Source: a virus. From it: a DNA stretch of 64,000 nt. Positions 8,508 through 57,789 of the stretch are shown here, one piece after another. Below the pieces are notes generated by a model that saw only the letters and a list, made by a program, of their open reading frames with translations, was not told the origin of the DNA and made no database searches. The position numbers were made by a program, and so were the translations under genes. The stretch lies in the IMG/VR virus record IMGVR_UViG_3300043778_000063, positions 1-64,000 of that record; one strand, given 5' to 3'. The first letter of the stretch is position 1. The number at the start of each line of letters is the position of its first letter.

Positions 8508-8833
8508 TTGGATTCCTCGGCAGCGAAAGACTTTGGGCAGCCGGCATTTTCGCGATGATGGTGCGGCCTCCAATTCGTAGGCACTCGGCGCCGGCCTGGT
8601 CTCCACCAATAATCATGCTCAAATCGGTAGACCGCCCATTGCTCTTCGGTCATGTCCCGCTTGACGTGGTTGCACGTGGCGCATGCCCAGACGAGGATGC
8701 GGCCGCCCTTGGATCTCGGCTCGACGTGATCCCTGGTTGGATAGAGCAGCGGCACATCGGTGCTCATCGGCCGCGCGCAATAGGTGCAGAGCTTGCCGTT
8801 CTGCCGGCGGGACCTGACAAACGGCTTCGTCAT
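8504..8833 (-). CDS. HNH endonuclease
   Basis: CTYC...TRDHVEPRSKGG...ACATCNHVK. Confidence 0.85.
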   Translation of the reverse strand: MTKPFVRSRRQNGKLCTYCARPMSTDVPLLYPTRDHVEPRSKGGRILVWACATCNHVKRDMTEEQWAVYRFEHDYWWRPGRRRVPTNWRPHHHRENAGCPKSFAAEESK

Positions 8834-28898: not shown

Positions 28899-29104
28899 CG
28901 ACGCGAACCGCAGTCCTGATCGACGAGCGCGACCGCCGAGTCGGGAAGGTCCAGGTCCCCGAGATCTGTTTCGTGATCCAGCACAATGGATGCACGTTCG
29001 TCCGGACGGAGAAGACGGTTCGGCTGCACCACTCGCATCGCGCATTCGCGGTGGTGTTTGATCAGACGGAAATTTTCATCCGCGAGCGGCTGGAGGCGAT
29101 ATGA
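28895..29104 (+). CDS. Hypothetical protein
   Basis: ATGA overlaps. Confidence 0.55.
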   Translation: MTTRTAVLIDERDRRVGKVQVPEICFVIQHNGCTFVRTEKTVRLHHSHRAFAVVFDQTEIFIRERLEAI

Positions 29105-29760
29105 CCGAGCAGCTCGGGCTATTCGCCGGCGCTGTCGAGCCCCGCCAGCATCCTCGACCGTCGGAGCCGATCATTCGTTCGGCCGACATCGAAGGGCCGT
29201 ACCGCTGGTCGATGACGCGCGCCTGGGGCGCTGGCCCGCATGTCCTATGGGGATTGCTCAACCCGTCTGACGCTGACGGCAGGCGAGACGATCCGACGAC
29301 GCTTCGCATGATGCAGTTCAGCTATTCATGGGGCTTCGGGTCAATGACGGTCGTCAACGTCTATCCGTTCATTTCGTCCACGCCGAAGGAAATGATCGCT
29401 TGGCGGCACACGTTCGATCACAAGACGCACGAAGCACTCGGGATGCCACTGTGGGAAACCGGCATCGACCGCGGAAGTTGGTCCGCCTTCCTGCATAATC
29501 AGCGGATCATTTCCGGGCTGATCACCGAGGAAACTACCTGCGTCGCCGCTTGGGGTCTCGGCCCCGACCCGATCGACCTGCAGAACTTCCTGGTCGGCGT
29601 CTGCATGCGCGTTCAGGACACCGAGTATGGCTGCGTTCCGATCCCGCCGACGTGGCATTGCATCGGAACGACATCCGATGGAAGCCCGATCCACCCTCTC
29701 GCGCGCGGACGCAACCGCGTCCCCGAAGGAACCGAATTGCGGAAATGGAAGAGGACGTGA
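29101..29760 (+). CDS. DUF1643-family protein
   Basis: YRW...LNPSDAD..DDPT...VNVY...AAWG...P.HPL. Confidence 0.85.
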   Translation: MTEQLGLFAGAVEPRQHPRPSEPIIRSADIEGPYRWSMTRAWGAGPHVLWGLLNPSDADGRRDDPTTLRMMQFSYSWGFGSMTVVNVYPFISSTPKEMIAWRHTFDHKTHEALGMPLWETGIDRGSWSAFLHNQRIISGLITEETTCVAAWGLGPDPIDLQNFLVGVCMRVQDTEYGCVPIPPTWHCIGTTSDGSPIHPLARGRNRVPEGTELRKWKRT

Positions 29761-29993
29761 TGGACGGAATCGAAATCGGAGAACGGTGGCGACATCGCAA
29801 ACGCGGTATCGTTTACGAGATCATCGCTACCAGTGCGAACCTGCAGTGCTCGGCCGCACCGGAGTTCGAAGCAATGTTCGATGATGACCATTTCATCGTC
29901 TACAAAAGCGTCAGAACCGGAGCATTTTGGATTCGTCCTGCTCCAGAATTTTTGGATGGTCGGTTTGAGAAGGTAGAACAGGAAGAATCATGA
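29760..29993 (+). CDS. DUF1653-like protein
   Basis: WRHRKRG.VYEII...VY...WIRP..EFLDGRF. Confidence 0.75.
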   Translation: MDGIEIGERWRHRKRGIVYEIIATSANLQCSAAPEFEAMFDDDHFIVYKSVRTGAFWIRPAPEFLDGRFEKVEQEES

Positions 29994-30811
29994 GCAAATA
30001 TTTCGACGACCAGCCGATTGTCCGCGGCGCCGATGTGATCTATCGGCCGGCTGGAAATGCCGGCGAATACGCTCCGTTGGCGACCAATCCGTGGAAGGGT
30101 TGCGGGCATGGCTGCAAATATTGCTATGTTCCGAACGCCACCCACATCGATCGCAAACTATTCAATGCTGGAGCCATCTATCGGGGGCCCGAATACGAGC
30201 GGCGGCTGGACCGCGACATCGACCGCCACCGGCATCTGTCAGGGACGGCGGCCGAGCAGGTCTTCATCACGTTCAGCAGCGATCCGTTCCACCCGCATGG
30301 CCGTCTGATCGAGACCACCGGCGTCGTAATGGAAAAACTTCGGCTGGGTGGTCTCGCCTATTGCACGCTGTCAAAGGGCGGCACCCGGGCACTACCGTTC
30401 CTGAAATGCTACCGGCCAGATCGCGATGCCTATGCTTGCACGCTGACGACGCTTGATGATGATTTCTCGCGGAAATGGGAACCGAACGCCGCATTGCCGG
30501 CGGATCGAATTGAAGCCTTGCAGGCCTTCCACAACGCCGGCATCTTCACGTGGGTCTCGCTCGAGCCAACGCTTGATGTCGACGCCAGCCTCAACATCGT
30601 TTGGGAGACGCATCAGTTCGTTGATCTCTACAAGATCGGCCGCGCTAACTACCTCAAAGAGATCACGCGAACTACAGACTGGCGCGATTACACCATCCAC
30701 ATGATTGCGCTCTGCCAGGACCTCGGCGTTAGGCACTACATCAAGAAGGACCTGCAAGAATTTTTGCCGCCCGGCTATCCCAACCCGCTGCGGGTTCAGC
30801 AGCATCACTAG
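29990..30811 (+). CDS. Radical SAM protein (SPL-like)
   Basis: GCGHGCKYCY CxxxCxxC motif; SSDP; WVSLEP. Confidence 0.88.
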   Translation: MSKYFDDQPIVRGADVIYRPAGNAGEYAPLATNPWKGCGHGCKYCYVPNATHIDRKLFNAGAIYRGPEYERRLDRDIDRHRHLSGTAAEQVFITFSSDPFHPHGRLIETTGVVMEKLRLGGLAYCTLSKGGTRALPFLKCYRPDRDAYACTLTTLDDDFSRKWEPNAALPADRIEALQAFHNAGIFTWVSLEPTLDVDASLNIVWETHQFVDLYKIGRANYLKEITRTTDWRDYTIHMIALCQDLGVRHYIKKDLQEFLPPGYPNPLRVQQHH

Positions 30812-30820
30812 GAGAACGAA

Positions 30821-31519
30821 ATGACGATCGAAACGCATGTGGTGGACATGAGCAAATACGCCGTCAGAGGGAAGCTTTCCGTGACCCGATCTGAATCCGC
30901 GCCATCCTCGTTAATGGACGCTGACCTGAGCGACGCAGCATTGATTCACCGTGCGTCCGTGATCGTCGGCTATGCGGCGGCGATTACCGCGGCAATCCTG
31001 ATGCTGATCTTTATCGCGGTTCTCATTTTCATCCCGATCCCGGCAAAAGCCGAGAGCGCCGGCAAGATCACGATTGCCCAAGCCGCCGCGATGACCACGG
31101 CGCTGCGCAACATGGACGGCCACATTATCGTCGTGAAACAGGGCGGCATCGACAACATGGTGATGATCCCGTGGGACTTCGGGTCGGCATCCCTGCGGCT
31201 CCGAATCGCGAGCGACATTGCGATCCTTGATGGCGTCGCGAGATCGGTCGAAGCATCCCGGCAGGCGATCATTAAGGAACTCCTCGCAAAGGCGAATGAG
31301 CGGACCCCGGACAAGTCGGTGACCGAGATCAAGCCGAGCACGCCCGAATATGACGAGTTCCAGCGCCAGTACGCCGACCTCAATGCGAGCCCCGCGCCTG
31401 GAACCCAGGACCTCGCCCGGATCAAGGCCAGCGAACTCCACATGGACCGGAACGATATACCGGTGACGGTCCTTTCCGCGCTTGGCCCCATCCTAGACGA
31501 CGACGTTTCCGCCAAATAG
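30821..31519 (+). CDS. Membrane-anchored or exported hypothetical protein
   Basis: Long hydrophobic segment ending PAKA. Confidence 0.65.
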   Translation: MTIETHVVDMSKYAVRGKLSVTRSESAPSSLMDADLSDAALIHRASVIVGYAAAITAAILMLIFIAVLIFIPIPAKAESAGKITIAQAAAMTTALRNMDGHIIVVKQGGIDNMVMIPWDFGSASLRLRIASDIAILDGVARSVEASRQAIIKELLAKANERTPDKSVTEIKPSTPEYDEFQRQYADLNASPAPGTQDLARIKASELHMDRNDIPVTVLSALGPILDDDVSAK

Positions 31520-33311: not shown

Positions 33312-33755
33312 CTATCCCCAATACCATGCCGTCGAGACTACAACGGCCGCGACCGACAGCATCCACGGCCAATTCCCAAGCGCTCGTTGCGTCAGGAAAT
33401 AGGTCACCCCGACGCGCCCAATGATCAGGAAGAACGCCCCGATGATCATCAGCGTGACCTGGGTGGAATTCATAGGACCGCCCCCACCTCCGATCCCGAT
33501 CCGGCGCCAATACCAGACGGTAACCCGCGTGATGGCGGCGCCGGCGCCCTCGAAACACAGCAGCCCGGCGACGCCGATCAGGCATCGATAGATGTCGTCC
33601 TCGTCGAATCTCTCGAACTTGATCGGGCTGAGATGCCCGCTCAGAAGCCGAAATAGCTCGTAAATGTAGACGAACAAAACGAGGAGCATGATCACAGCGA
33701 CGATGGCCGACTCTGTGTTCGCGTATTCATTGAGAGCGATCAGCGTTTGCATCAT
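33312..33755 (-). CDS. Four-TM membrane protein (holin candidate)
   Basis: Four hydrophobic segments; lysis region. Confidence 0.6.
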   Translation of the reverse strand: MMQTLIALNEYANTESAIVAVIMLLVLFVYIYELFRLLSGHLSPIKFERFDEDDIYRCLIGVAGLLCFEGAGAAITRVTVWYWRRIGIGGGGGPMNSTQVTLMIIGAFFLIIGRVGVTYFLTQRALGNWPWMLSVAAVVVSTAWYWG

Positions 33756-33934
33756 TCGTCATCCTCATGTTCTTCATTGAAGTGGATGGATATCGCGATC
33801 AGAGGATCAAGCTTGGCGCATAGAATCGATGTGCGCTCTTTGAGACGTTCCGCAGCGACGTGAACTCGATCTGATTCGTCGAGGCGATGAGGCCTGCCGG
33901 TCAGTTTTTCCCACAGCCTCACCCATATGGTCAT
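33752..33934 (-). CDS. Hypothetical protein
   Basis: ATGA overlaps at both ends. Confidence 0.5.
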   Translation of the reverse strand: MTIWVRLWEKLTGRPHRLDESDRVHVAAERLKERTSILCAKLDPLIAISIHFNEEHEDDE

Positions 33935-34224
33935 CGCCGGCCTCGCCCATTCGGCTTCACGTTCAGAACTCGATCGAAAATTCCGTTCGTTGACCGTTGC
34001 ACTTCGGCCATCTTGTCGATTGCGCTCGCGGTGTCGTTCATTGATTCGGTGGTGTCTCTCGACACCTGCTTCAGCTCGGCCTGTGCCGATTTCCGCTCGT
34101 CCCGTTCCATCCACCACCTGAACTCCGCGGACACCCACAGGATCGCGAAGGCTCCAGCGATCCCATGTGCTGCGATGAACGCGAACACTTTTTCGAGAAA
34201 ATCGCCCAAGCTCTCCAGGGTCAT
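33931..34224 (-). CDS. Holin/antiholin-like single-TM protein
   Basis: N-terminal TM plus coiled coil. Confidence 0.55.
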   Translation of the reverse strand: MTLESLGDFLEKVFAFIAAHGIAGAFAILWVSAEFRWWMERDERKSAQAELKQVSRDTTESMNDTASAIDKMAEVQRSTNGIFDRVLNVKPNGRGRR

Positions 34225-34350
34225 CGGGTAGCATCCTACTCTCCGAAATTGTCCTGGGCGACCAAAAACAAACGGCCCTGATTCCTGCATATATGGAATC
34301 AAGGCCGGTTGCATCAGTTGTCATGATTCGCGCGATGCGCGCGATCCGAT

Positions 34351-35091
34351 TCAGAACTCGACAGCGACGCCGGCGAGATACTTCGTCCCGACGGTCGACG
34401 TCACGCCGACCGGGCCACCGAACGTGACGCCTTTGTTTTGAAATACGGTCTCGACGTACTCGCGAACGGCAGAACCGTTGCTGAGTTGCTCCATCAGGTC
34501 GAACTCGATTTTTGGCGAGAACGACCAGACTTTGTTGGATCCGGCGCCGAGAAAGGCGACCGTGACGTCGTCCGCGCGGAAGCCTGCGCCAAAGCCGGCT
34601 TGAACGTTACTTGCAGTGACGCCGACCGGCAGCAACGGGAACGGGGCTACGCTGCTGAACGGATTCGGCAAGCTCAGCAGACCCAACGCGTTCTGGATGG
34701 TCGAAACAGGCGTCCATATCAGTCCGGTACCCTCGAATGAGACCGGGCCCGAGACCGAGAAGCCAGCGTTGGCGCCGTTGAAATTAGTCGCGCTGACTTT
34801 GCCCTCGATCGCATAGGCGAACATGCTGCTTTTGCTGCCCCAGGCATAGCCGGCATTCAGGCCAACACCCGCCGTGGTCGTGGTCAGGCTGGCCGGGTTA
34901 ACGCCAGGGACACTGGCGACCACCGGGCCGCCGCCGGCCTCGGTGAAGATGCCGGCGTAGAAGCCGGAAGTGCCGAACGGATAGCCGGTAAAGACGGGGG
35001 TTGCTGGCGCCTTGACGGCCATGTCCGCAGCAAGCGCGGGACCGGCCAGGAAAGCCGCGGCGATCGCCGCAATGCGGAGGAAGTTCTTCAT
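34351..35091 (-). CDS. Outer-membrane beta-barrel protein (Omp25/RopB-like)
   Basis: Signal peptide, ADMAVKAP, GFYAG, terminal Phe (VAVEF). Confidence 0.8.
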   Translation of the reverse strand: MKNFLRIAAIAAAFLAGPALAADMAVKAPATPVFTGYPFGTSGFYAGIFTEAGGGPVVASVPGVNPASLTTTTAGVGLNAGYAWGSKSSMFAYAIEGKVSATNFNGANAGFSVSGPVSFEGTGLIWTPVSTIQNALGLLSLPNPFSSVAPFPLLPVGVTASNVQAGFGAGFRADDVTVAFLGAGSNKVWSFSPKIEFDLMEQLSNGSAVREYVETVFQNKGVTFGGPVGVTSTVGTKYLAGVAVEF

Positions 35092-35208
35092 GGAGTGTCC
35101 TCTCAAGGGGTGACGGAATGCGCAGGAAGGTACGCGCCGACCACGTCAGGCCGAAAGAGGATTTACGGCGGCGCGCGTCAGATTATCTCCGACTGCGGCA
35201 TTTATACA

Positions 35209-35451
35209 TCACCGCCGTTCGCCGGTCTGTTCGCATCCGTAGCGGCCGCAGGGATGATAGCCAGCCTCGATAGCATCCTTGGACCACGATTGCGGGATCC
35301 AAAATCGCTGTTCCGAATCCAGCGATAGCGGCACACCGCGGACTTGAGCGCTGGTCGTGCAGCAATCCGGAGTTACCGAAAACATCACCATGCGTTCGGC
35401 CGCGGCCGCAGGAATCACCGAGGCCAGCAGCGCCGCAATGACCCGGTTCAT
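35209..35451 (-). CDS. Small exported hypothetical protein
   Basis: Signal-like N-terminus; Cys residues. Confidence 0.45.
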   Translation of the reverse strand: MNRVIAALLASVIPAAAAERMVMFSVTPDCCTTSAQVRGVPLSLDSEQRFWIPQSWSKDAIEAGYHPCGRYGCEQTGERR

Positions 35452-36164
35452 GCGGCCGTCAGCGGCGCCGTGGGGGGAACGAGGAAGCTCGGCGGGGCTG
35501 TTGCCGAAGGCACAATGGGGCGGTCCGTGACCGGAACCGGCGGCTCCGGGCTGTCCTTGTGCGCGTCGGCGATGATGGCGGCGCCTGCGGTCGTCTGCGG
35601 GATGGCATCGATGATTTTGGCGGCGACCACGTCGGGCGTCAGGCCGAACCGCTTGAGCACCCCGGGTATTGCCAGCGACGCCTGATTCGCCGCGCGCGCC
35701 AACATCGCGTTATCGACCTGCACGGACTTCCCGCTCATTCTGACGGCGCCATCGGAGATCAGCGACGCAGCGCGGTTCTGGAGGAACGTCGTCAGCGCGT
35801 TGCGATGCCCCTGGTCGAGGTCGATATTCCACTTCGATTTCAGCACGGTTGCCATGTAGCCGACGAGCGCCAGGATCAGCGCATTGGCAACCGAGTCGAT
35901 GTACGGCTCAAGCCAGCCGAAGGCGGAAAACTGGATGAGGCCACCGGAGGGCGGCGCCGGCGCCGAAATCAGCGCAACCTTGCCGCCATCATCCTTCTGC
36001 AGCTGCGCCTGTCCGATCGCCACCGGACCGCCCACTCGCTGGGACGCCACCACATCGGCCGTCGCCGGCATCGGCACGCCCTCCGGGTGGATGTTATTGA
36101 ACTGCGCGGCCGCCGGCAGAACCAAGGCCAGCAGCATGGCCGGGACGATGAGAAGTCGGCGCAT
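35448..36164 (-). CDS. Exported/membrane protein, lysis accessory candidate
   Basis: Signal peptide plus internal TM; near the endolysin. Confidence 0.7.
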   Translation of the reverse strand: MRRLLIVPAMLLALVLPAAAQFNNIHPEGVPMPATADVVASQRVGGPVAIGQAQLQKDDGGKVALISAPAPPSGGLIQFSAFGWLEPYIDSVANALILALVGYMATVLKSKWNIDLDQGHRNALTTFLQNRAASLISDGAVRMSGKSVQVDNAMLARAANQASLAIPGVLKRFGLTPDVVAAKIIDAIPQTTAGAAIIADAHKDSPEPPVPVTDRPIVPSATAPPSFLVPPTAPLTAA

Positions 36165-36173
36165 CAGGATCTC

Positions 36174-36377
36174 CTATTCGGGGAAAATTCTGTCTATCAC
36201 GGCGCAGAAGGCGGCGTAAGCGTCTTTCAGCTCTTTCATGCCGTTCTCGAACTGCGCCGCAGCAGCGGGAACGCCCTCGCCGATGCCGTTGGTGGCGCAG
36301 TTGGCCGCGCGCGCCTTGGTCGCGTCGATCAGGCCATCCTTGACCGCCTGCAGCATCTCCGCCCGGGACAGGGTCAC
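36174..36377 (-). CDS. Hypothetical protein
   Basis: GTGA overlap with the endolysin stop. Confidence 0.5.
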   Translation of the reverse strand: MTLSRAEMLQAVKDGLIDATKARAANCATNGIGEGVPAAAAQFENGMKELKDAYAAFCAVIDRIFPE

Positions 36378-37228
36378 GTCGAGGTCTTCGGCGCCGCTGG
36401 CTCTTCCTTCGGCGCGTCGAGCGCGGCCAGCGCTTCCTTGAGCGCGGCCACCGTCTCGGGCCCGGCGAAGTCGACCCTGAGGTTGTAGCTGCGCTGGAAA
36501 TGCTCCACCGCCTTTTTCGTCTTGTCTCCGTAGCTGCCATCGACGTGCAGCGGGGGTTCCCAGCCGAGCCGATTCAGTGCCGTCTGAATCCATTTGGTGT
36601 CGACGCCGGTCTCAGGCGCCGCGATGCCGGAATGGATCGGCGGCGCAATCGCTGCGCTCGGCAGCGCCAGCGACGGATCAATCTCGACCATCCGGCGGGC
36701 GACCGGGATGATGCCCAACTGCTCGTCCATCACGGTTGGATCATAAACGTGATCTCTCACGTATTTGCCAGGGGTTTGAATGTTCGTTCCTCCCCATAGA
36801 TAGCTGGTGTGCTGATGATGCTCATCGCGCGGTCCAAACCCGTTAAAAAGTTCTCCATAGAAGCAGATCAATTCCCAGATCCAGTTGGGCGCGCCAACGC
36901 GATCAAGTCCATTCAGATGGTACGCAGCAATCGCCGAATCCGCCCACGTCCGGAAGGGTCCATTCTTCGGAACGTCCTTCGATATGCTGTTCAAGGGCCA
37001 ACCTTGACCTGCGTTTCTAGTGAAATCCGAACCGGATTCGCGCTCGAATAGCGTCGCCATGAAGACGATCGGCACGCCGGTCGCCACGCTCACGGACTGA
37101 TACCGCGGTTTGAACCCGATCAACTTCATCGCGACGTGGTCGACCTCGGCGCGGCATTCCTTCCGGACCACCATCGCGGAGAGCAGTTGCGAATATTCCG
37201 GCTTCAGGATCTCGAAAGGATGACGCAT
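36374..37228 (-). CDS. Endolysin (lysozyme-family catalytic domain plus peptidoglycan-binding domain)
   Basis: ERES, FNGFG, YLWGGT, GKYVRD; IQTALNRLG..L.VDGSYGDKT..AV..FQ. Confidence 0.88.
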   Translation of the reverse strand: MRHPFEILKPEYSQLLSAMVVRKECRAEVDHVAMKLIGFKPRYQSVSVATGVPIVFMATLFERESGSDFTRNAGQGWPLNSISKDVPKNGPFRTWADSAIAAYHLNGLDRVGAPNWIWELICFYGELFNGFGPRDEHHQHTSYLWGGTNIQTPGKYVRDHVYDPTVMDEQLGIIPVARRMVEIDPSLALPSAAIAPPIHSGIAAPETGVDTKWIQTALNRLGWEPPLHVDGSYGDKTKKAVEHFQRSYNLRVDFAGPETVAALKEALAALDAPKEEPAAPKTST

Positions 37229-37240
37229 CGATCCAACTCC

Positions 37241-38401
37241 TCAGTTCTGGGATTCCTTCGAGACGATGAAGTTCGATACGAACCCCGTCGGGTTGGCGAC
37301 CATGATAGCACCGTTGTACGACCGGATGTTGAGGCAATCGTTCAGATTGAGCCACATGCTGGCGCTGACTTTCGTGGTCTGCACGCCACCAGTGCCATTC
37401 TCCTCATCCGCCTTGATGATGCCGCCGTTGACGTACAGCGACACGTAGAACACGGTATTCGGCGGCGCAGAGGGGAAATACAGCGTCGCGTCGGCATGGT
37501 ACACACCTGCGACATGCGGCGTGAAACAGCCTGTGGCCGGATTATAATCCCCGTTCAAATCGGTGTAGATCAGATCCGGCACGAGGAATTGCGGCGTCGG
37601 CGTCGCCGAGAGCGCGACCGCCTCTTGCCAGCCGACTGACGTCAACGTCGGACCGCCGAGCGTGACCGGGATTCCAGCCAGATAGCTCATGACGTCTTGG
37701 TTGAAATACCCAGGCTGGTGACCCAACGTCCGGATCGTGAGCAGAGAGCAACTGGCGCCGACCGCTGGACAGAATATCGACGACGTCAGATTCTCCGGGA
37801 CGGTCGAGTCGTTGTCCCCGTGCCAGATCTGGATCGGAACGCCTACAAAATTTGCTGCATTCAGATTCGGCGTGACTGAACTCTGGATCGCCGAAAATCC
37901 GGCCGCCGTCACGCCATATGCGCTGTATAGCGACGCCTGAAGCGACGGGAAGACAGCAGGGTCGGTCACGGGGAAAACTGCCGCGATCCGAGCGCACATC
38001 GAGGCCGGAGCATTGAAATTTTGCAAGCCTCCGCGCGATTGCGCATAGCAATTCGGTTTCGCCGCTAGCGAATAATTCGACGTGATAAACGCAGCGAATG
38101 GTCCCAACTGCGCGGCGTTATAGCCGTAGTCGTCGAGCCCGCCATCGGCCCCAGGAATCCACATGCCGACCACGGTCTGGCAAAATGGCTGCTGCGATAG
38201 GCCGGCTATCAAAGGGAGTGGTGCGGCATATCCGAGGCCGCCATTTGACACCGGCCCGGTCGGCATGATCAGCGTCCATTGATTGCCCGTGCAGCCGGCT
38301 GCGGGCGTATTCATGAAATATGTGAACCCATTCCATGTCAGAGCATTTGCGGGAAGACATCCGATCGACAACAGGAGCAGTGCTGCTAATATTTTTTTCA
38401 C
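37241..38401 (-). CDS. Signal-peptide alpha/beta-hydrolase with C1q-like C-terminal domain
   Basis: AQSRGG elbow, WHGDNDSTVP, LGH; YNPATGCFTP..AGVY. Confidence 0.7.
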   Translation of the reverse strand: MKKILAALLLLSIGCLPANALTWNGFTYFMNTPAAGCTGNQWTLIMPTGPVSNGGLGYAAPLPLIAGLSQQPFCQTVVGMWIPGADGGLDDYGYNAAQLGPFAAFITSNYSLAAKPNCYAQSRGGLQNFNAPASMCARIAAVFPVTDPAVFPSLQASLYSAYGVTAAGFSAIQSSVTPNLNAANFVGVPIQIWHGDNDSTVPENLTSSIFCPAVGASCSLLTIRTLGHQPGYFNQDVMSYLAGIPVTLGGPTLTSVGWQEAVALSATPTPQFLVPDLIYTDLNGDYNPATGCFTPHVAGVYHADATLYFPSAPPNTVFYVSLYVNGGIIKADEENGTGGVQTTKVSASMWLNLNDCLNIRSYNGAIMVANPTGFVSNFIVSKESQN

Positions 38402-38413
38402 GTTGATTCCTTG

Positions 38414-40504
38414 CTATGGTGAATAATGCTCAAGAACGTAGATTGATCCGACAGCCCCCGCTCCGCCAGGTTGGCCTGTAGATGCCGTGCCTGCAGCCCC
38501 TCCCGCGCCAACGCTATAGGAATAAGTCGCGCTCGGCGCATTGACTATCTTGCTGAAACATCCTCCTGCGCCACCTCCAGTTCCAGCTCCAGCGCCAGCA
38601 AGCGCCGTTCCGCCGCTGCCTCCTCCCCCTGAATTTGTGATCCCGGCCGTGCCTGCATTTCCCGGTGTCGAGATTGGACCACCGCCACTATAAAATCCGC
38701 TATCACCTCCGATTCCAGCGTTTCCGGTTGTCCCGGTTCCCGGGCCGCCGGCTCCTCCTGTAAAATTCAGATCTCCTCCTGTGGCCGTACCGCCGTTGAC
38801 CGCGGCGCCATTATTACCATTGCCTGCGCCACCGCCGTTTGCGGTCAAGAATGATGATCCAAATGTCGTGGCAGATCCTGCTGTGGCTGCAACTGTCGTT
38901 CCGGTTCCTCCGAACCCGCCGCCGCCGCCGCCGCCGCAGCCGCGAATCTCCAGCCACGATACGGCACCGTTGGCGGTCGGTGTCGTGTACGTTCCGGAAA
39001 CAAATCCGCCTGTTCCGGTTGCTGTACCAGAGTTGAGAGCCGTGCTAACCGTGATCGGTCCGGTGCCCTTGATGGTGGTGGCGCTGGCAAATACTGCAGC
39101 CTGGCCGGCCGCTGGTGTGCCGCTGGTCGAGACGTTTCCTGATCCAGCTGGCGTTTGCCATGTGCCATCTCCGCGCCAGAAAGTGGATGAGGATGCGCTC
39201 GTTCCGCTATTCAAGTTCGTGACTGGCAGATTTCCGGTGACACCGCCATTGCCCGATGAGGCTAGATTCGCGGCCGACATGAACGAGCCAGAAACCGTCC
39301 CCGAATTGATCTCCGATCCGGCAATCGACTTGTTCGTGAGCGTTTGCGTATCGGTCGTCCCAACGATCAACCCGCTTGCGGGGAAGGTCTGCGCGGTCCC
39401 GCTGACCGTAAGAGCGGTGAATGCTCCCGTGCTCGGCGTTCCCGACCCGATCGGACCCGGCGTCGCGAAATTGGCGCCATTGATAAATGATGCGTTTAGA
39501 TTCGCGACCACTGTGGTCGACGCCACTGAGAATGGTGCGGTACCTGTTGCGAGGGTCGATGCGATCTGACCTGACGTCGTCATCGTACCCGTGATCGCTG
39601 GTGTGATCATCGTTGGCGATGTATTGAGCACATAGCCGCCAGTCCCGGTTGGTGCGGTACCGTTGTTGTAAATGAGGCCTGCAATATTGAGGGTGCTGAT
39701 GCCCTTGTCACCCCCGGTCGGCGATCCGATCGTGATGCCGCCGCTGGCATTCTGGCATAGTCCATTGGCCAATATCGCCGAGGCGATCGGTGTCGTCGCC
39801 ACGCAAGCCTGGCTGCCCTGATGCCCGGACGAGATGTTCTCCGCCGCATAGATCCGATAAGATGCAATCGCCGTCGTCGTCAGACCCGCGCCGTTGTACG
39901 CCCATGAGTTGAACGATCCGACCTCGGTGCCCGATGTGATCGCGGTTGGACTCGCGTTGGTCCCGCCGTACGAAACCCCGGAGAACGTCGATGGCTGACC
40001 GAACGCGTTGAGTTGGATGCGGCCGACCACGCCATTCGCCGCTCCGACGTTCAATGCAGCACCCGCGATCGCCGCCGGCAACGTGGTGGCGTTCAGGTTG
40101 ATGATCTGCTCGGCGGCAAATGTGTTCGTGGCGTTTATGACCGCACACGTCGCGCACGGGCCAACCCCGATCGGACCGACCGTTGATCCGTTGACCTGGA
40201 AGAAAAATCCGGCAGCGGTATCCCAGACGTCTCCATTGATGGGTGATGTCGCAGGTACGCCAGGCGCAATATTGAACCCGGAACGCGATGCCGTTGATGG
40301 CGCCGTGGTCAACTCGCCGGTCATGATTCCGCCGGACGTCAAGACCGGAGGTGCTCCAAGATAATCTTGCTTCGATGCCCACTCCTCGTTCCATTGCGCT
40401 GTGGTTGGAACTTGCCCGTAAGTCCAGCCGGGGTTGCTCTGCGCCAGCGCGGCGCTCGGCAGGAGCGCCAGCAACGCGAAGAGGGCCGCTTTCAAATGGC
40501 GCAT
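38414..40504 (-). CDS. Tail fibre-like protein with glycine-rich tip
   Basis: G/T/S-rich; [24 protein letters not shown] domain; signal-like N-terminus. Confidence 0.75.
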
Positions 40505-40513
40505 CGATTTCCC

Positions 40514-41386
40514 TCAGTTCTGGAACGGTGGCAGTTTCCACGCATCGACATTCGCCGTGGTCAGATCGGCGACATCCGACATCGCCTGCGCCGCCCATCG
40601 GTGAATCGATTCGACCGTCTTCCTGTTGGCCTCTCGCGCCAGCATGAAGGCGTGATCGGCGGGTGATCTGGTCTTCGCCATCAGGCCAGGCCGGTCGGCA
40701 TAGGCGGCCTCGGCTTGCTTCACCACCGCAGCCTGATCGGCGATCGGCTGATCAAGCGCTTTTGCTGCCGCCAGATCAGAGGCAATCACCGCGCCGAGCC
40801 CGGTCAGAGACTGCATCGCCGCTCCGATCAGTCCCGGCTGCTCGGCGGCCAACTTCATCTCAATTTTCTCTTGCTGGCTATTGAGAGCGGCCAACTTGTT
40901 CCGTTCATTGTCAACCGCGCGCAGCGATTGCTCAACGGCTGCGGCATCCGCCACCTGTATGTCGGCGGCGCGAAACTCGGCGGCGCGCAGCTTCGCCGCC
41001 GGGATGACTTTCTCGATCTGCGCTACCTCGGCCTCCTGGATCTGACCGATCAACGCCTGCTTCTTCGCCGCAAGAACCTGATCCGGTGTCGGGCCATCGT
41101 CCACGATGACATAGTTCGGTCCGGTATCATCGACCGCGCCAGCAACAATGGCAGGAGCGATCGGCGGCGGGAACGGCGCGTGCGCTTTTTCCTTCGGCAC
41201 GCCAGCGGCCTTGTCTGCAGCGACCGCAGCCATGTGAGCCTTCCAATCCGTCATTTCCTTGGCATAGGCTGCGACGTCCGCCTGGAACGTCGGGCCCACC
41301 TGAGACTTCAGAATCTTCGCCGGCTCAGCGGCAAAGACCGTCGACGTGAAAAATATCGCGATGAGAAGCAGAGCTGCGCGTTTCAT
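40514..41386 (-). CDS. Exported helical protein, possible fibre assembly chaperone
   Basis: Signal-like N-terminus; lies between the fibre genes. Confidence 0.6.
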   Translation of the reverse strand: MKRAALLLIAIFFTSTVFAAEPAKILKSQVGPTFQADVAAYAKEMTDWKAHMAAVAADKAAGVPKEKAHAPFPPPIAPAIVAGAVDDTGPNYVIVDDGPTPDQVLAAKKQALIGQIQEAEVAQIEKVIPAAKLRAAEFRAADIQVADAAAVEQSLRAVDNERNKLAALNSQQEKIEMKLAAEQPGLIGAAMQSLTGLGAVIASDLAAAKALDQPIADQAAVVKQAEAAYADRPGLMAKTRSPADHAFMLAREANRKTVESIHRWAAQAMSDVADLTTANVDAWKLPPFQN

Positions 41387-42597
41387 AGTTTGATAATCCA
41401 TATGCCGATCATGGCTCGAGGCGTGTTATTGGCCGGCGTGTTGAAAAGACCGTTACCGCCATCGGTGGCGCCGTTGACGACATGCGTGTGGTTGGCGCTC
41501 TCGGTGCTCGTCGTGAACGAATAGGCGTGCTGATGACGCGTGCTGGCGCCTGACGTGTTGACGTTCGAATTGTTGAAGCTACCTCCGCCAGCGACATTCG
41601 CACCACCGCCGCCGAATCCCTCGACCGAGTGGAAATGATCCGGACTATCGTTTCCGGTCGTGCCGGATCCGGTATGCGTATGGGCGGCGCTCTCGATGCT
41701 GCTCGTGATGTTGATGTTGTGCGTGTGCGCCGGGAGTTCGCCGACAGTGTTGGTGTGAAAGACCTCGCCGATCAATGATAGATTGAAGTTCGGGCCGCCG
41801 CCGAAAATGACCGGGACGCTATTCAGAACCCCTGTGCCCTGGTCGTTCCCCATCTGCATGGAGCCAGCCATCGAAAACACGGCGATTTGCTTGTTCGCTG
41901 CGTAATCCGCTGCAGCATTGGCTCCTCGGCCGCCAGTGACCGGGCACTGCGTGTTCGAGCAATTATTCCACAGCAGAACGTACAGAAGTTGCGTCGTCGA
42001 GTTGGCCACTGTCGCACCGGACGACGCATTACCTATCGTAGTCGAGGCGTTCAGGTTGACCCATCCAGAGGGTACGGTCGTCCAGGTCCACGCGATCGAG
42101 CCGGTCTGATACGTGCTCGGCAGCGGCACCCAATTCGTCCCGCCAGTGTCCGGGTTCGAGGTGTTGTTGTCGGCGGTCGAAAGCCAGAAGTCACCTGGAA
42201 CGATCGTAGATTGGAGAATGGCTCCCTTCGGGTATCCATTCGCGGCTCCGGTCGCAAACGTCGCGTCGTAGAATGTCGGGCCGCCTGCGGATGTCCACTG
42301 ATCCCATTGCGTGATCTGCCGCAGAATGCCGTTGAAGTCCTGCCCGAACGGCGCGCAGCCGCCGGCAGCGGCCGGCACGAAAGTGAGCGGCGGAAAACCA
42401 TCCGTGAGCGAGGCCGAGCAATTCGTGATGCCGATCTGAGACGGCTGCGGAATCGATCGGATGTACGGCGTCGCCGCAAACGCGCCCCAGGTCAGCGCGA
42501 ACTTTGGCGGGACATTGGCCTGCTGGATGGCGCCCGCACCGCTCGCGCCGAACAGCGCCAGAGCCGCGACAAAGGCTGCTATGATTCGGTTCTTCAT
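41383..42597 (-). CDS. Tail fibre protein (baseplate-proximal) with collar-like region
   Basis: GFPPLTF.P..AGG..P.GQDFNGIL, YPKGAIL, HTH/HQH repeats. Confidence 0.85.
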   Translation of the reverse strand: MKNRIIAAFVAALALFGASGAGAIQQANVPPKFALTWGAFAATPYIRSIPQPSQIGITNCSASLTDGFPPLTFVPAAAGGCAPFGQDFNGILRQITQWDQWTSAGGPTFYDATFATGAANGYPKGAILQSTIVPGDFWLSTADNNTSNPDTGGTNWVPLPSTYQTGSIAWTWTTVPSGWVNLNASTTIGNASSGATVANSTTQLLYVLLWNNCSNTQCPVTGGRGANAAADYAANKQIAVFSMAGSMQMGNDQGTGVLNSVPVIFGGGPNFNLSLIGEVFHTNTVGELPAHTHNINITSSIESAAHTHTGSGTTGNDSPDHFHSVEGFGGGGANVAGGGSFNNSNVNTSGASTRHQHAYSFTTSTESANHTHVVNGATDGGNGLFNTPANNTPRAMIGIWIIKL

Positions 42598-42614
42598 GCG
42601 GTAATTCTCTCCCA

Positions 42615-43292
42615 TCATGACGGCGGAGCTGTGATGTTAATACCGACGCCAGCCGGATCGGGCAAGACGCCAGGGGTCTGCAGGATCGCGAGGTCGACCG
42701 GCGTAAGGGGAAAGCTGAACGTATAGGTCGCCGTCATGTTCTGATTGTCGGCGATGTAGGCGGTCCCGCGGCCGGGGAAAAGCTGCAGCAGGATGCTGTT
42801 CGTCGATTGGATGGATCCGTCGGAGATGTTGCCCGCAGCTTTGGCCAGGATGAGCCGCCGAAAATCGGAGTCCTGCAGGATGAAATTGGAAACCGACGAC
42901 GAGCCGCTGGCGAAGCTGCCCTGGTTGAACCCGGTCCAACTGTTCGCCTCATTGAACCCAAAGCTCGGGGTGAGACCAGAGAATTTCAGCACCCTGGTGA
43001 CACCGACGATCCTGCCCAGCACATCGAGACCGTAGCCGACCGCGGTCGTGATATCGACCTCATTCTCCAGGAACTGCTCGTAGAACTGCGTCAGGTCCAT
43101 CGCCGCGTTGAACGACGTGATCAGACCAGTGATGATTGGACTGTTTGCGTATTGGCTGAGAACGATCGTCCATGGATCCCACGGCGAAAGTTCGCCGAGC
43201 GGACTCACGCCGATGGAAAAAGTCCCAATCGCATTCGATCCTGGCGTGAAACCTGGAGCGAACCGGGGATAGGGCGGGCCCGTGTCGGTCAT
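42615..43292 (-). CDS. Baseplate wedge protein (DUF2612)
   Basis: [27 protein letters not shown]. Confidence 0.85.
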
Positions 43293-45154
43293 GTGTGCGA
43301 AACCAAAATGTTCGCCGCGGTGAGCTGCGGCACCTGATTCGCGTTGACCTGGATCACGATCTGATCGGCAGATGCCGCAGTGAATACTCCGTTGGTGGTG
43401 AGCGCCGCACCGCTCGACGTCGTGGTGTTGCTCGTCACGTAAACGCCAGCACCGCCGGGCGTGCCGCTGGTTTGGTTGACGATGATGGTATTGGACGGAA
43501 CGCCGGTACCGGTCAGAACATTGCCGTTTACAATCACGCCGGTCACAGCCGTCACGGTCAAGTTAAAACCTGATCCCGTGCCCGTGAACGTCGCGCCAAA
43601 TAGCGTCTGGGGTTGGTTGACCGTATAGACGCCGACGCCGCCCGGGGTGCCGCTGGTCTGGCCGGTGATATAGGTGGCATTCAGCGTGAGATTGAGCACG
43701 TCGAACAGCGCATCATTCGTGATCAACGTCCCTGACGTCACCGCAGTGACCGTCAGATTATTCCCGGAAATATTCCCAACCACGACCGCATCGGATTCAT
43801 TGGCCGATCCGATACCGATCGCAGCGACCTGCGCCCATGTCCCCAACGCCGCCACAGCTGGGACGTACTGGATCGCGTATAACTGAGAATTGATCCGCGC
43901 CCGCGGAATCGTCGTCCCGGTGGTGGTGGTCGCCGAAGTCATCGGCTCGCTGGTGACGGTCTGCGCCACGCTGACCGAATAGGTGCCGATTCCTCCGGTC
44001 CCGGTGCCGAAACCGGTGATCGTCGTGTTGGCGACCAGATTGCCGGTGAGGTCATCGATCGTCTGGCCGATTGACAGCGTTCCGGAATTCACCGCGCTGA
44101 CGGTAAGCGTCGTCCCCGCCACCGAGCCCGTGAAATTGGCCTGCAGGGATTGCCCCGAGAATGCTGCGAGGATCGCGCTCTGGATCTGGGTCTGGAATGT
44201 CGATGGGACCAGCGGGCCGTTCGCGACCACGATCTTGAACAGCACCTGAAGCGCTGGCGGGATCTCGTAGGTGATCTGGTACGGAACCGGCGCGGAATAC
44301 AGCGGATTCGAATCGTAGACCGTGACCGTGGTGTTTCCCACCATCGGCGAGCCCGGGCTCTTTTTGGACCAAATCGCCTGCGCCACGGCCGCTGGCGCGC
44401 CGCCGGCAACGCAGATGTACGTCGAATAGGCCGCGATCGAGACCCCGTTGATGACCACGGTCCCGTTCGTGGGATTGGCGACACCGTAATAGTCGAGAAC
44501 CCCTGGCACCTCGGCGACGGCGCCGATGATGGCACCGACCGGGCCGAAACTGTTGCCGGCGACGCTATCCTGCCGCCGCGTTTCAAATGCCGCGCGGCTC
44601 TCGACGTTGCGTCCGATCGCGCCCGACAGCACCGTGGCGGAATCCCATCCGGGGATGAGCTGCGTCAGGGTCACCGCGGCAGGTACCGCCAGCGGGCCCG
44701 GCACCACTGCGGCAAACGACAGCGTGATCGCCCCTCCGACTGGGATCGTGCCGGCCTGGACGCACTGATAGAGGTTGTTGTTGATGTCCTGGACCAGCGC
44801 GCCGATCGGAATTATGACGCCTTGGGCGCCGTTGCAGATGATCTGGAGTGCGGTCGGTTCCGAGGGCTGCCGGGCGAAGCCGGGGATCAGCCGCCCCAGC
44901 GCATCCTGAAACCTGCCGGACGCATAGGCCGGATCGAACTGTTGAGCGTAATAGACCGCAGTCGAATACGTATTGACGACGATCGCGCCCCAGGACTGCG
45001 CCAACTGCCCCTGCGGTGTCGTGAGCCCGTAGTTGAGCGCGCTACCGAACGCGCCGCTGATGTCGAGTTGCACGCCGGCGAGAACGGACGGGCCCGATGG
45101 CGCCAGAAACCCGGCCGACGTCCATTGTATTTGGGGGACCGACGTTCCGGCCAT
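43289..45154 (-). CDS. Baseplate J-like protein with inserted repeat modules
   Basis: [25 protein letters not shown]. Confidence 0.88.
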
Positions 45155-50603: not shown

Positions 50604-50803
50604 CAGGACCTTCCGAGCTTGGGGTAATCGTCAGGTTGATCGGCGCCGGGCGCGCTGCGGACCTGCGGCATGTCTGCCGGCGTCAGGAACTCAACCCGGG
50701 CGATCGTCTGACCGTCGGCGGCGAACGTGACGGCCTTGACGTAGGGACATTGAATCAACGGATGATGCCACGCATCGCCGCAGCGCGGGCAAGCCTCGGT
50801 CAT
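50603..50803 (-). CDS. Small Zn-binding hypothetical protein
   Basis: CPRCG..HH...CPYVKA. Confidence 0.6.
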   Translation of the reverse strand: MTEACPRCGDAWHHPLIQCPYVKAVTFAADGQTIARVEFLTPADMPQVRSAPGADQPDDYPKLGRS

Positions 50804-51228
50804 GCCGGCGCGACCGCCATCGACTGGAAGATCATCTGGTAGCGGCGGGGCTGCATGACCTTTTTCGCCGACGGCGCCTTGTAGGAGCTCAGGAACCCTG
50901 CGTTCAGCGCGATCTTCGTCGATGTACCCGGAATTTTCACGGAGCCGAACAATTGATAGGTCGATTTGGTCGCCTGCTGCTGACCCCAGATCCGGTCGAA
51001 GATCGCGTTCGAGGCCGAATCCGCCTGCAGCACGATGTCCCACGGGATTTCGACGAAAACGAATCCGGCCGACAGAACGCCATCCACGCCCATCGTTGAT
51101 TCGATCGACTTGATCGCCGGAATGTCGAAGACGTCATCCGCCGCAAAGCCCTGGAGTTGCTGCGGCGTCGGGTAGAGCAGCGCCTGCGTCAGCGTCAGCA
51201 CGACATCGGATGCGGTGATCACGCCCAT
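50800..51228 (-). CDS. Tail tube protein
   Basis: LQGFAADD, MGVDG.LSAG, LQADS.S; follows the sheath. Confidence 0.85.
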   Translation of the reverse strand: MGVITASDVVLTLTQALLYPTPQQLQGFAADDVFDIPAIKSIESTMGVDGVLSAGFVFVEIPWDIVLQADSASNAIFDRIWGQQQATKSTYQLFGSVKIPGTSTKIALNAGFLSSYKAPSAKKVMQPRRYQMIFQSMAVAPA

Positions 51229-51240
51229 TTCAGATGCTCC

Positions 51241-53238
51241 TCATTGGATGGCGACGCTCGACAGGCTGATGCTTTGCGCTGAGCCCCTATCAAGGTACCA
51301 GAACGTGATTGCCCACGGTCCACGGTTCAGCCGAATGTTGGTCGCCTGCTGCAGGACCTGGAGGTAGTAGCCCTGAGCCTGCAGCGTGTCGGTGATGTTG
51401 AGGCTGGGATTGCCGGCGTTCGCTCCAGCCTGCGAGTTCACTGCGGCGATTTGTGCCGGAGAAATGGTGCCGGGCGCAAAGGCATTGAAATTGAGACCGG
51501 CCTGGATCGGCGAAGCCAGCGCGGCCTCGATGAGCGCCGCGCCGACCGTGTTGAACGGGATCGACAGCGAGTTGTTCATCAGGTTGAGCAGCGCGAGTTG
51601 CAGGTTGCTGTTCAGCCAGATCTGATTGACGTAACTGTCGGCCCAAAGGAATGATCCGGTGATGATCCCGCGCTGGAGCCACGTGAAATTGGCATTTCCG
51701 GAGCCGACGGCACCATAATAATTGTAGCCGTTGCCGCGGTCGCCGAGGACCTGCGGATTGCCACCGATATTGATCGCGGTCTGCCCGGATACGACATCGG
51801 AGACCAAGCCGGTCTGACTTCGGAAGGCGAAATCAGTTCGGCCATTGGTCTGGTTGAAATTGATCGACGCCGCGATTCCCATTACGAAAGCGGCTTGGTT
51901 GAGATCGGTGAGTTCGGAGATCAGGAACGTCCCGGAATCGCCATTGCCGGCTAGAATCTGCCCGAGCGTTTCCGATTGCGGCGGGTTCGACCGCACCAAC
52001 ACGTCGGTGTCGCCCGGCACGTACATGTAGCGGTTCGGGAACGTGTTTTTCCAAGCGGCAAAGGCTTGCTTGAGCGTGTTTCCGACGCCGCCATCCGGAT
52101 CCACCGTGGTCGTATAGGTGGCCCAGTTGGTGGTGATCGCGACCACGGCGTTCATGACACTAGCCGGCGTCGCCGCCGCGGCACCCTGCGAGAGGAACGC
52201 GCCGGTCGCCGAGGTCAGCAGCAGCGAGGCCGCCAGCGTCCCGGTGGCGAATGCCGAGGTCGAGGCGGCTCCGGTGATCCCCGAGGTGATCACGAACGCC
52301 CCGGACTGGGAATCGAACGTCACCAGGGGAGCAGTCGCGATCGCCGTCATGGCCTCGCTGGCGACCTGCTGTTGCGCACCGCTGAGCCGATAGGTTCCGA
52401 CGCCGCCTGCGGGCCCGGTGAGTTGCGCGGTGATCGTCGGCGCGCCCGTGACCCCGGCGCCGACCACGGTCTGGCCGACCACCAGCGACACGACGGATTC
52501 CACCGTGACATTGAGGACCGTGCTCGAGCCGACGCACGCCGCACCGGAGGCAGTGCCGCTCAGGCTGGTGACGTAGACGCCAGCCCCGCCCGTGGTCCCG
52601 GAGGTCTGGGAAACGATCGTGGTGTTCGCCGCGACGCCGGTTCCGGTGACGGTGTCGCCGATCGAAATCAGCCCGGTGACGGCCGTCGTCGTCATGTTGG
52701 TGCCGGCCTGTGTCGCCGTGAAGGTGGCGCCGATGGCCGCGGTAAAGGAGGCCTCCGTCGGATCGGTAAATGCCGCCTGGATCGCGGCAGCAGCGGCCGA
52801 GAAGCTGTTCGATGAGGCCAAACTGATCGACGCGATCGCGTGCGCGTAGCCGTCCATGACGATGTTGAGGGAACCGTTCAGGGCTTGCAGTTGCGCCAGC
52901 GTCAGGGCCGCACCGGCGTTGCCGCCCCACAGATACGCCGCGACGGCGGCGGCATTGTACTGCGCGAACAGCAGCGCGCCCGGCAGCGAATTGGAGTTGG
53001 TGAACCCGCCGAAATAGCCGGTCCCCTTGCCGCCGCCGCCGCCGGCCATCAGGGCTTCCTGGGAGGACGAGCCGAAGAACGCCGCGACCGCCGTGGCGCT
53101 CGCGAAGCTATAGACGGCCCCTAGAGGAACCCGGTTGCTGCCGGTCAGGATCAGGCCATTGAGACTGACGGCCTGGCCGACGGTCGAGAGGACGGATGGG
53201 ACGACGTTTACGAAGAGACTCGCAGGAATCGTCGTCAT
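51241..53238 (-). CDS. Tail sheath protein (DUF3383)
   Basis: IPAS..V.V.PSV, GYNYYG, WADSYVNQIWL, FWY.D.GS.Q. Confidence 0.9.
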   Translation of the reverse strand: MTTIPASLFVNVVPSVLSTVGQAVSLNGLILTGSNRVPLGAVYSFASATAVAAFFGSSSQEALMAGGGGGKGTGYFGGFTNSNSLPGALLFAQYNAAAVAAYLWGGNAGAALTLAQLQALNGSLNIVMDGYAHAIASISLASSNSFSAAAAAIQAAFTDPTEASFTAAIGATFTATQAGTNMTTTAVTGLISIGDTVTGTGVAANTTIVSQTSGTTGGAGVYVTSLSGTASGAACVGSSTVLNVTVESVVSLVVGQTVVGAGVTGAPTITAQLTGPAGGVGTYRLSGAQQQVASEAMTAIATAPLVTFDSQSGAFVITSGITGAASTSAFATGTLAASLLLTSATGAFLSQGAAAATPASVMNAVVAITTNWATYTTTVDPDGGVGNTLKQAFAAWKNTFPNRYMYVPGDTDVLVRSNPPQSETLGQILAGNGDSGTFLISELTDLNQAAFVMGIAASINFNQTNGRTDFAFRSQTGLVSDVVSGQTAINIGGNPQVLGDRGNGYNYYGAVGSGNANFTWLQRGIITGSFLWADSYVNQIWLNSNLQLALLNLMNNSLSIPFNTVGAALIEAALASPIQAGLNFNAFAPGTISPAQIAAVNSQAGANAGNPSLNITDTLQAQGYYLQVLQQATNIRLNRGPWAITFWYLDRGSAQSISLSSVAIQ

Positions 53239-56276: not shown

Positions 56277-56277
56277 C

Positions 56278-57788: not shown

Positions 57789-57789
57789 C

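Follow-up and report, generated by a model that had tools for sequence, protein, structure and literature searches.

Predicted Sec-type leaders on a baseplate fibre and neighbouring late genes of an uncultured myovirus suggest a possible periplasmic route of fibre maturation

According to the textbook account, tailed phages are assembled entirely in the cytoplasm, and a tail fibre gene that opens with a predicted secretion signal raises the question of where its product matures and how it then joins the particle. We address this question for a 64,000-nucleotide stretch of viral DNA (bases 1-64000 of the uncultured IMG/VR record IMGVR_UViG_3300043778_000063; hereafter, the window), in which four consecutive genes on the minus strand, between positions 37241 and 42597, begin with predicted Sec-type leaders. 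The reading that we favour, and regard as somewhat probable, is that the fibres encoded here are exported by Sec, cleaved by signal peptidase, folded with the help of Dsb, and docked at lysis onto particles built in the cytoplasm.

Four predicted leaders and a baseplate fibre

The original prediction described four basic-hydrophobic-AxA leaders in a row, and all of them were found as quoted, on the minus strand. Gene 1, the fibre 1 precursor (41383-42597), encodes 404 amino acids (aa) from an ATG at 42597; gene 2, the fibre-partner gene (40514-41386), encodes 290 aa; gene 3, the fibre 2 precursor (38414-40504), encodes 696 aa; and gene 4, an orphan for whose product export is predicted (37241-38401), encodes 386 aa from a GTG start. 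The predicted signal peptides span residues 1-23 of gene 1 (42529-42597; an MKNR n-region, and AGA followed by IQQ), residues 1-19 of gene 2 (41330-41386; MKR..VFA, then AEP), residues 1-21 of gene 3 (40442-40504; MRHLK..ALA, then QSN), and residues 1-20 of gene 4 (38342-38401; an MKK n-region, and ANA followed by LTW). Leaders were predicted with our own n/h/c-region heuristic rather than with SignalP, and genes 1-4 scored 41.4, 40.2, 38.0, and 40.9 (i.e., 38-41). All four n-regions have a net charge of +2, the uncharged stretches that include the hydrophobic core extend over 15-17 residues, and each protein has a single 19-residue hydrophobic window, which is N-terminal. Genes 1-3 contain neither a lipobox cysteine nor a twin-arginine motif, and gene 4 has SIGC inside the leader core, which makes a poor lipobox. 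As judged from these sequence features, the four N-termini have the form of canonical Sec/signal-peptidase-I leaders, with cleavage and export being predicted. The mature proteins would contain 4, 0, 6, and 8 cysteines, respectively.

The leaders exceed chance. A scan of the whole 72.7-kb record, in which the 696-aa gene was scored separately (the gene caller had missed it), found strong leaders at the starts of open reading frames (ORFs) only in the block 34351-42618. Across 79 related loci, the heuristic was positive in 79 of 157 genes occupying the first three positions downstream of the fibre, and in 19 of 528 upstream tail or baseplate ORFs of at least 150 aa. Within the window, it detected no signal in the endolysin, the DUF2612 protein, or baseplate J.

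Could the leaders nonetheless be artefacts, i.e., mis-called starts or chance hydrophobic N-termini? Two observations point that way: the gene 4 leader needs the GTG start, with an alternative gene call beginning at Met30, and gene 2 has no clear ribosome-binding site. The remaining evidence speaks against it. The ORF of gene 1 opens 7 codons earlier, at 42618, inside the upstream stop, and both starts include the leader; by sequence, the most likely start is the ATG at 42597, which GGGAGAG precedes by 10-16 nt. GAGGGA and AAGGAA precede the starts used for genes 3 and 4, respectively, by 6-11 nt. In none of the four genes is the leader separated from the conserved mature N-terminus by an in-frame ATG, GTG, or TTG, and at the next candidate starts (codons 35, 55, and 30) either conserved residues are lost or a ribosome-binding site is missing. 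Moreover, leaders recur in more than 100 relatives each of fibre 1 and fibre 2, against the low control rate (19/528). True starts downstream of the leaders had been named as the point to check, and since no downstream start preserves the conserved residues, we rejected a start-codon artefact; artefact as a whole is, in our view, very improbable.

The motif GFPPLT..AGG..GQDFNGIL, which the original prediction placed behind the first leader and described as a baseplate-attachment domain that is normally N-terminal, was located in gene 1. Among the PHROG tail-fibre families that the protein matches, phrog_12796 is the best (E 8e-27), and the third position of this profile falls on residue 33 of the long ORF. 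Using tblastn, the N-domain was matched in 143 cultured-phage records, mainly from Acinetobacter, Xanthomonas, Burkholderia, and Ralstonia phages, and among the 40 matches listed, all start at query residue 25 or later. We opened five of these phages (phiAO1, Bcep1, vB_E177, RS-CA1, and Orisa03). In all five, the annotated fibre coding sequence starts 0-3 codons before the match, lacks a leader, and comes after the baseplate J gene and one of roughly 200 aa. The description is thus borne out: the domain is normally N-terminal in both the PHROG alignment and the five cultured phages, which makes the gene 1 leader an addition in front of it, with 23 extra residues preceding the domain in the precursor.

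Gene 1 also occupies the expected slot. Baseplate J (43289-45154, minus strand; PF04865) and the DUF2612 gene (42615-43292, minus strand; PF11041) come directly before it, an order common to the cultured phages opened, and the stop of the DUF2612 gene overlaps the gene 1 ORF. An AlphaFold model (81-row alignment, pLDDT 74.8) places the leader in a separate helix (residues 2-16). In a structural alignment, residues 21-159 of the model pair with residues 1-126 of the Pa193 fibre as solved together with the baseplate (9b45_2; Z 7.2, root-mean-square deviation 6.2, 120 aligned residues), and Foldseek gives a probability of 0.96 for the N-domain against the same fibre. The remainder (residues 161-404) resembles the T4 gp37 tip (2xgf; Z 7.3), the cyanophage A-1(L) fibre (7.2), and T4 gp12 (7.0), and ends in a C-terminal needle with HxH motifs; the top fold matches are all fibres. 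Given that the record (94% complete) holds a single copy, sequence and model together identify gene 1 as the phage's only baseplate-attached fibre. Its N-domain homology, gene order, and fibre-type C-terminal part are shared with leaderless myovirus fibres, namely Bcep1 gp33, Bcep781 gp31, and those of phiE131 and vB_E177 (Burkholderia), RS-CA1 (Ralstonia), phiAO1 (Acetobacter), and Pa193 (Pseudomonas, 9b45). Unlike these, gene 1 opens with a predicted Sec leader of 23 residues, and its domain contains a cysteine pair.

Leaders, cysteines, and cleavage register among fibre relatives

We analysed the co-occurrence of leader and cysteines in the 120 best homologues of fibre 1 and in 80 IMG/VR loci, 198 of which carry the N-domain anchor motif. 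A leader together with cysteine at the N-domain site was found in 111 of the 198, and neither in 78. The mixed classes are small: 7 have a leader and no such cysteine, and 2 have the cysteine and no leader, one of these being an evidently truncated gene call. When a stricter heuristic was applied to the 120 homologues alone, 79 had both features, 2 only the leader, 7 only the cysteine (several of them truncated gene calls or proteins with long N-terminal extensions), and 32 neither. In addition, the number of mature cysteines is even in 97 of 107 leader-bearing fibres (p 5e-19) vs 32 of 70 leaderless ones, a parity signal dominated by a conserved four-cysteine pattern (67 rows).

The leaders themselves share only 36% identity, compared with 68% over the first 100 mature residues. 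Small residues nevertheless occupy position -1 in 107/107 leaders (A in 71, S in 26, and G in 10), and position -3 is A in 76 of the 107. Hence, the architecture of the leader appears to be conserved despite its unconserved sequence, which suggests that the leader is under selection. From the predicted mature end to the conserved anchor, the median distance is 29 residues, and leaderless forms have 28 residues after Met (n = 70). With these distances matching, the predicted cleavage would recreate the docking N-terminus of the leaderless forms.

These data also bear on the possibility that the leaders stay uncleaved, serving as membrane anchors that tether the fibres or whole baseplates at the inner membrane. 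The hydrophobic cores, at 10-15 residues, leave room for such a role. An anchor has no requirement for small residues at -3/-1, however, which are found in 107/107 leaders, nor would it need a cleavage site kept in register with the leaderless N-terminus. Furthermore, an anchor with its N-terminus inside would place the body of the fibre on the periplasmic side, with the docking domain held at the membrane, away from cytoplasmic baseplates. We consider tethering quite improbable.

Immediately behind the predicted cleavage site, 26 of 107 leader-bearing homologues have a Met, and most relatives have L, Q, I, or S. Judging from the sequences, this Met is probably a former start codon, and the leaders may therefore have arisen by 5' extension of a leaderless gene. 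The same Met could still initiate translation, and this brings in a dual route, whereby virions would draw on a cytoplasmic fraction, left behind by slow export or made from a second start, and the exported protein would serve some other function. In gene 1, however, the residue behind the cleavage site is Ile, and none of the four genes has an in-frame start after the leader; the leader-linked cysteine pairs and even counts likewise argue that the functional protein would be the oxidised form. A dual route is thus improbable in our estimation, and cleavage followed by periplasmic folding remains the reading that we prefer.

If the fibre is exported, a protein that acts on it should be found in the same compartment, and gene 2 is the candidate. 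Its product contains no cysteine and matches no known family. Relatives lie directly behind the fibre in 13 loci; they have a leader in 4/4 loci with a leader-bearing fibre and in 0/9 loci with a leaderless one. The nine leaderless relatives, one of which is a 36-residue match only, begin at the predicted mature start of gene 2. Complex prediction for mature fibre 1 with mature gene 2, based on our own alignments, scored 0.38, and the best of three controls scored 0.00. The runs agree in at least 47% of contacts, with a partner pLDDT of at least 82. The mark applied was reached by 116 of 157 solved complexes and by 2 of 215 mismatched pairs, and 18 of these solved complexes, as well as both mismatches, reached it at 0.60 or under; accordingly graded, the prediction lends weak support to a fibre 1-gene 2 complex. 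Gene 2 is probably a fibre chaperone or connector that would have to share the compartment of the fibre.

The second fibre-type protein, the orphan, and their place in the particle

Gene 3 encodes a conserved mature N-domain (residues 22 to about 135) followed by a variable, glycine-rich C-terminal part. Its first 135 residues match 2982 representative clusters at E <=1e-3, and 1007 at 1e-10. Leaders were surveyed in the best 150 of the representatives. In 114 of them the domain is N-terminal, and 106 of these passed the heuristic, a leader is evident in another 5, and 2-3 have none; the remaining 36 are long proteins, most of them leaderless, in which the region of residues about 55-120 occurs as an internal repeat. 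A gene of this type lies downstream of the fibre in 46 of the 79 loci, and 42 of 47 such locus proteins carry leaders, including 22 of 26 behind leaderless fibres. Some phages would therefore pair a cytoplasmic fibre with an exported one. Behind the conserved mature N-terminus, the relatives vary in total length from 447 to 1645 aa, and by sequence this variation behind a fixed N-terminus is the pattern of receptor-binding proteins.

Cysteines follow the leader in this family as well. The mature count is even in 112 of 121 leader-bearing members (spread 0-20 cysteines) vs 11 of 20 leaderless ones, and the median cysteine content is 1.01% vs 0.17%. Nine rows (P0136, P0193, P0229, P0232, P0235, P0248, P0261, P0227, and P0269), being fragments or having evident leaders that the heuristic missed, were dropped before the leaderless count.

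The gene 3 model is confident at residues about 30-290 only (pLDDT 54.7 overall). This part matches, by fold, domains of Bdellovibrio Bd1334 (8oml; Z 11.2, 146 aligned) and Bd2439 (8ol4; Z 9.3), as well as the L-shaped tail fibre of T5 (5aq5, Z 9.8; 4uw8, Z 9.6); 101 BFVD matches were obtained at E <=1e-3, and the named ones are tail fibres. No Pfam family, that of the S74 chaperone-protease included, was matched by the 696-aa protein even at E 5, and a protein atlas offered Gly_rich_2/DUF2793 (score 0.86), which we treat as a lead only. Collectively, sequence and model identify gene 3 as a second tail-fibre-type protein, of a family that almost always bears leaders and is thus predicted to be exported.

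There is a precedent for such an arrangement. According to PMC10769870, all 21 Bdellovibrio MAT fibres carry a conserved ~130-aa domain right after the signal peptide, and they are described as phage-fibre-like trimers, some of them without the S74 chaperone-protease. Sec export of phage-fibre-like trimers is, on that evidence, an established possibility. The gene 3 family likewise combines a leader, a conserved N-domain, and a variable fibre, the likeness being one of architecture and of the fold of MAT C-terminal domains. The MAT fibres are encoded by the predator's chromosomal genes and displayed on its own surface; in contrast, gene 3 lies inside a phage late operon, beside a baseplate fibre.

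Gene 4 is of another kind. The C1q family (PF00386) is matched below threshold (18.3 bits vs a cut-off of 23.7; E 0.0029), and PDB C1q chains match residues 268-366 (E 1.8e-4); the atlas proposes alpha/beta hydrolases (0.82), again as a lead only. Beyond near-identical copies, no relatives were found in a collection of 5.8 billion proteins. Which gene occupies this position differs from locus to locus, and leaders were present in about a quarter of the genes examined there. From its sequence, gene 4 would be an accessory hydrolase-like orphan with a C1q-like end. The original prediction had called all four tail fibre genes. This holds for gene 1 and, in that it is tail-fibre-like, for gene 3; gene 2 is rather a probable partner, and the description does not clearly fit gene 4.

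Proteins of this sort might also be exported without becoming virion parts and act on the infected cell's own envelope, e.g., by masking or destroying receptors (superinfection exclusion, or less sticking of progeny to debris), by remodelling surface polysaccharides, or through MAT-like surface display. Lambda carries lom, an outer-membrane-protein gene, and an outer-membrane-protein-like gene lies in the same block here. Gene 3 has MAT architecture and fold; gene 4, together with the GDSL and ConA-like proteins described below, resembles enzymes or lectins; and neither gene 3 nor gene 4 has relatives in cultured phages. Signal-peptide-bearing genes of unknown function in Porphyromonas gingivalis phages are read, in the available part of PMC10367356, as host outer-membrane modifiers; this is the nearest published remark that we encountered, and it concerns host-type signal peptides, but tail fibres are not addressed in that part. 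Fibre 1 is more difficult to accommodate. It retains a complete baseplate-binding domain, the sole copy in the record, in the fibre slot after baseplate J and DUF2612, with overlapping stop and start. Predicted cleavage would recreate its docking N-terminus, leaderless members of both fibre families occupy the same gene positions, and all four genes are tightly spaced (9-12 nt) inside the late operon. If its relatives acted on the envelope instead, hundreds of them would be left without a baseplate fibre. An envelope role is therefore plausible for genes 3 and 4 and hard to square with gene 1; overall, we regard it as unlikely.

Several observations weigh against our preferred reading, that of exported fibres docking at lysis. 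In a FastTree tree of 182 distinct fibre 1 N-domains, one large clade holds nearly all rows with leader and cysteine, from which it follows that the association, although real, is mostly inherited. The leader state changes at least 8 times on this tree and the cysteine state at least 6 times; the leaderless clade contains three small leader gains without cysteines, and two poorly supported reversions lost both features together. An independent-pairs test of leader vs cysteine had 4 supported pairs, p = 1, and no power. To this must be added the 7 leader-bearing fibres that lack the N-domain cysteine, and the 4/4 vs 0/9 pattern of gene 2, which may represent one evolutionary event. A scan of genome contigs with the single fibre as query yielded 6 loci, all leaderless, and the named genomes holding relatives carry leaderless forms throughout; leader-bearing homologues are present in NCBI genomes (e.g., P0030, P0040, P0069, P0075, and P0118). 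Neither gene 3 nor gene 4 has relatives in 50,697 cultured-phage records, so that their place in the virion is argued from gene position and fold only. Lastly, the fold Z-scores of gene 1 are middling (<8), and the control positives of the heuristic amount to ~3.6%.

Late-operon context and a possible assembly route

By Pfam and PHROGs, the source genome is a complete uncultured myovirus (72,706 bases; CheckV completeness 94%), and the window covers most of the record. The late genes are all on the minus strand. The head and packaging module comprises the large terminase (6816-8609), the portal (2911-5616), Mu-F-like and protease genes, and the major head protein (62134-63246). The tail module consists of a DUF3383 sheath (51241-53238), an E217_Gp32-type protein (50800-51228; PF22764, named tail fiber protein by Pfam), a neck terminator, a chaperone, a tape measure, a Dit-like protein, and a gp41-like hub, and the baseplate module adds a gpV-apex spike and a gp25-like protein to baseplate J and DUF2612. 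The four leader genes come next, 9-12 nt apart or overlapping, and the endolysin (36374-37228, minus strand), which has a C-terminal PG_binding_1 domain, lies directly 3' of them. As the endolysin has no leader, a holin-type membrane lesion would be needed for its release. A promoter and terminator scan of 33500-43500 gave counts within chance, and no Dsb or signal peptidase genes were found among the record ORFs scanned. Pfam at E up to 5 and NCBIfam returned nothing useful for the unannotated proteins, and a sequence search of solved structures with the window proteins gave weak matches only.

Some of these genes have features of their own. The 901-aa portal is an unusual fusion, in which Phage_portal_3 (E 7e-57) is followed by a C-terminal Topoisom_I domain (topoisomerase IB; E 5e-18, with Top1B_N_bact). 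Outside the window, a NUDIX hydrolase is fused to a DUF2213 head-maturation protease (423 aa; G000 65684-66955, minus strand; L090:2685-3956). A domain with matches to phrog_21413 and phrog_38233 (tail fibre protein) is present both in baseplate J (residues 335-409) and in a minor head protein of 321 aa (residues 227-300; G000 63312-64277, minus strand); by sequence, it may be a decoration or adhesion module common to head and baseplate. Genes for a DUF1643 protein and a radical-SAM protein lie in the early region (29101-31519, plus strand), together with one whose product contains a long hydrophobic segment.

A low-GC island (54109-57800, minus strand; GC 0.52 vs about 0.60) separates the head module from the tail module. 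It contains genes for a 200-aa protein with a leader-like N-terminus (56278-56880, minus strand; heuristic 42.0), a ConA-like protein (55425-56276, minus strand; weakly leader-like, 27.6, when read from Met29) that matches the virion structural protein phrog_10356, and a GDSL esterase with a weak leader-like N-terminus (54109-55428, minus strand; 30.5). A GIY-YIG/NUMOD3 homing-endonuclease-like gene is also found there.

Three further leader-bearing genes, conserved in related loci, encode proteins of 238, 80, and 246 aa (34351-36164, minus strand). The 238-aa protein (in the region 35209-36164) combines its leader with one internal hydrophobic segment (residues about 89-110) and may be a holin or another membrane protein of lysis; we recognised neither a canonical holin nor a lipoprotein spanin. 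The 80-aa protein from the same region has a leader and 4 cysteines. The 246-aa protein (34351-35091) has a leader, is rich in glycine and aromatic residues, ends in Phe, and resembles an outer-membrane beta-barrel; several related loci (L010, L011, L013, and L020) also have it after their lysis genes, and its sequence suggests that it may be a Lom-like moron. Phage proteins that use Sec are familiar at the end of the late region, among them SAR endolysins, spanins, and outer-membrane morons of the lambda Lom/Bor type. Spanins are described in PMC3556154. The three genes fit this ordinary lysis and accessory class, which, unlike the fibres, does not consist of receptor-binding virion parts.

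We found no description of Sec-exported tail fibres of tailed phages in the literature that was accessible to us, subscription journals and supplements being outside the search. The long tail fibres of T4 are built apart and join the finished particle last, and fibreless particles can be armed in vitro. The last-step docking that we propose resembles this attachment; unlike fibre 1, however, T4 fibres have no leader and fold in the cytoplasm with dedicated chaperones. Virion proteins with signal sequences do occur in filamentous phages, whose pIII and pVIII rely on the host export machinery for insertion (cf. PMC4823517). Inovirus particles are put together at the membrane and leave the cell by extrusion, with no lysis, whereas the rest of the particle here has the build of a cytoplasmic tailed phage.

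Taken together, these comparisons suggest the following route. Capsids, tails, and baseplates would be built in the cytoplasm from leaderless proteins, while the four precursors would pass the inner membrane via SecYEG. Signal peptidase I would cut after AxA to leave an N-terminus like that of the leaderless relatives, and the mature proteins would fold and trimerise in the periplasm, with the host Dsb system closing disulfides. Once a holin and the leaderless endolysin had breached the envelope, the compartments would merge, and the N-domains of the fibres would attach them to particles that still lack fibres. In this route, export, cleavage, the closing of disulfides, and post-lysis docking are steps that we infer. 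The original prediction had proposed export, periplasmic folding, and attachment at or after lysis, and its two halves fare differently. Export with periplasmic disulfide folding is well supported by comparison, through the leaders, cysteines, cleavage register, and partner switching. Attachment at lysis follows as a logical consequence: given their leaders and paired cysteines, these parts probably fold in the periplasm, and could meet the particle only then.

Extending this to its relatives, we tentatively propose, as a possibility to be taken seriously, that the particles of a large myovirus clade, most of it uncultured, are armed outside the cytoplasm, with exported, disulfide-bonded fibres and a helper being added to fibreless particles at lysis. 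The family offers a favourable test case, with orthologous fibres existing with and without a leader and the leaderless form occurring both in cultured phages and in a solved baseplate structure. If true, the host Sec system, signal peptidase I, and Dsb would be phage dependency factors for infectious progeny, and the production of recombinant fibres or tailocins from such phages would be affected. Such a route would also account for the cysteine-rich receptor-binding proteins of soil phages. Periplasmic fibre maturation would then be a common, overlooked branch of tailed-phage morphogenesis, adding an extracytoplasmic branch to the all-cytoplasmic assembly of the textbooks.

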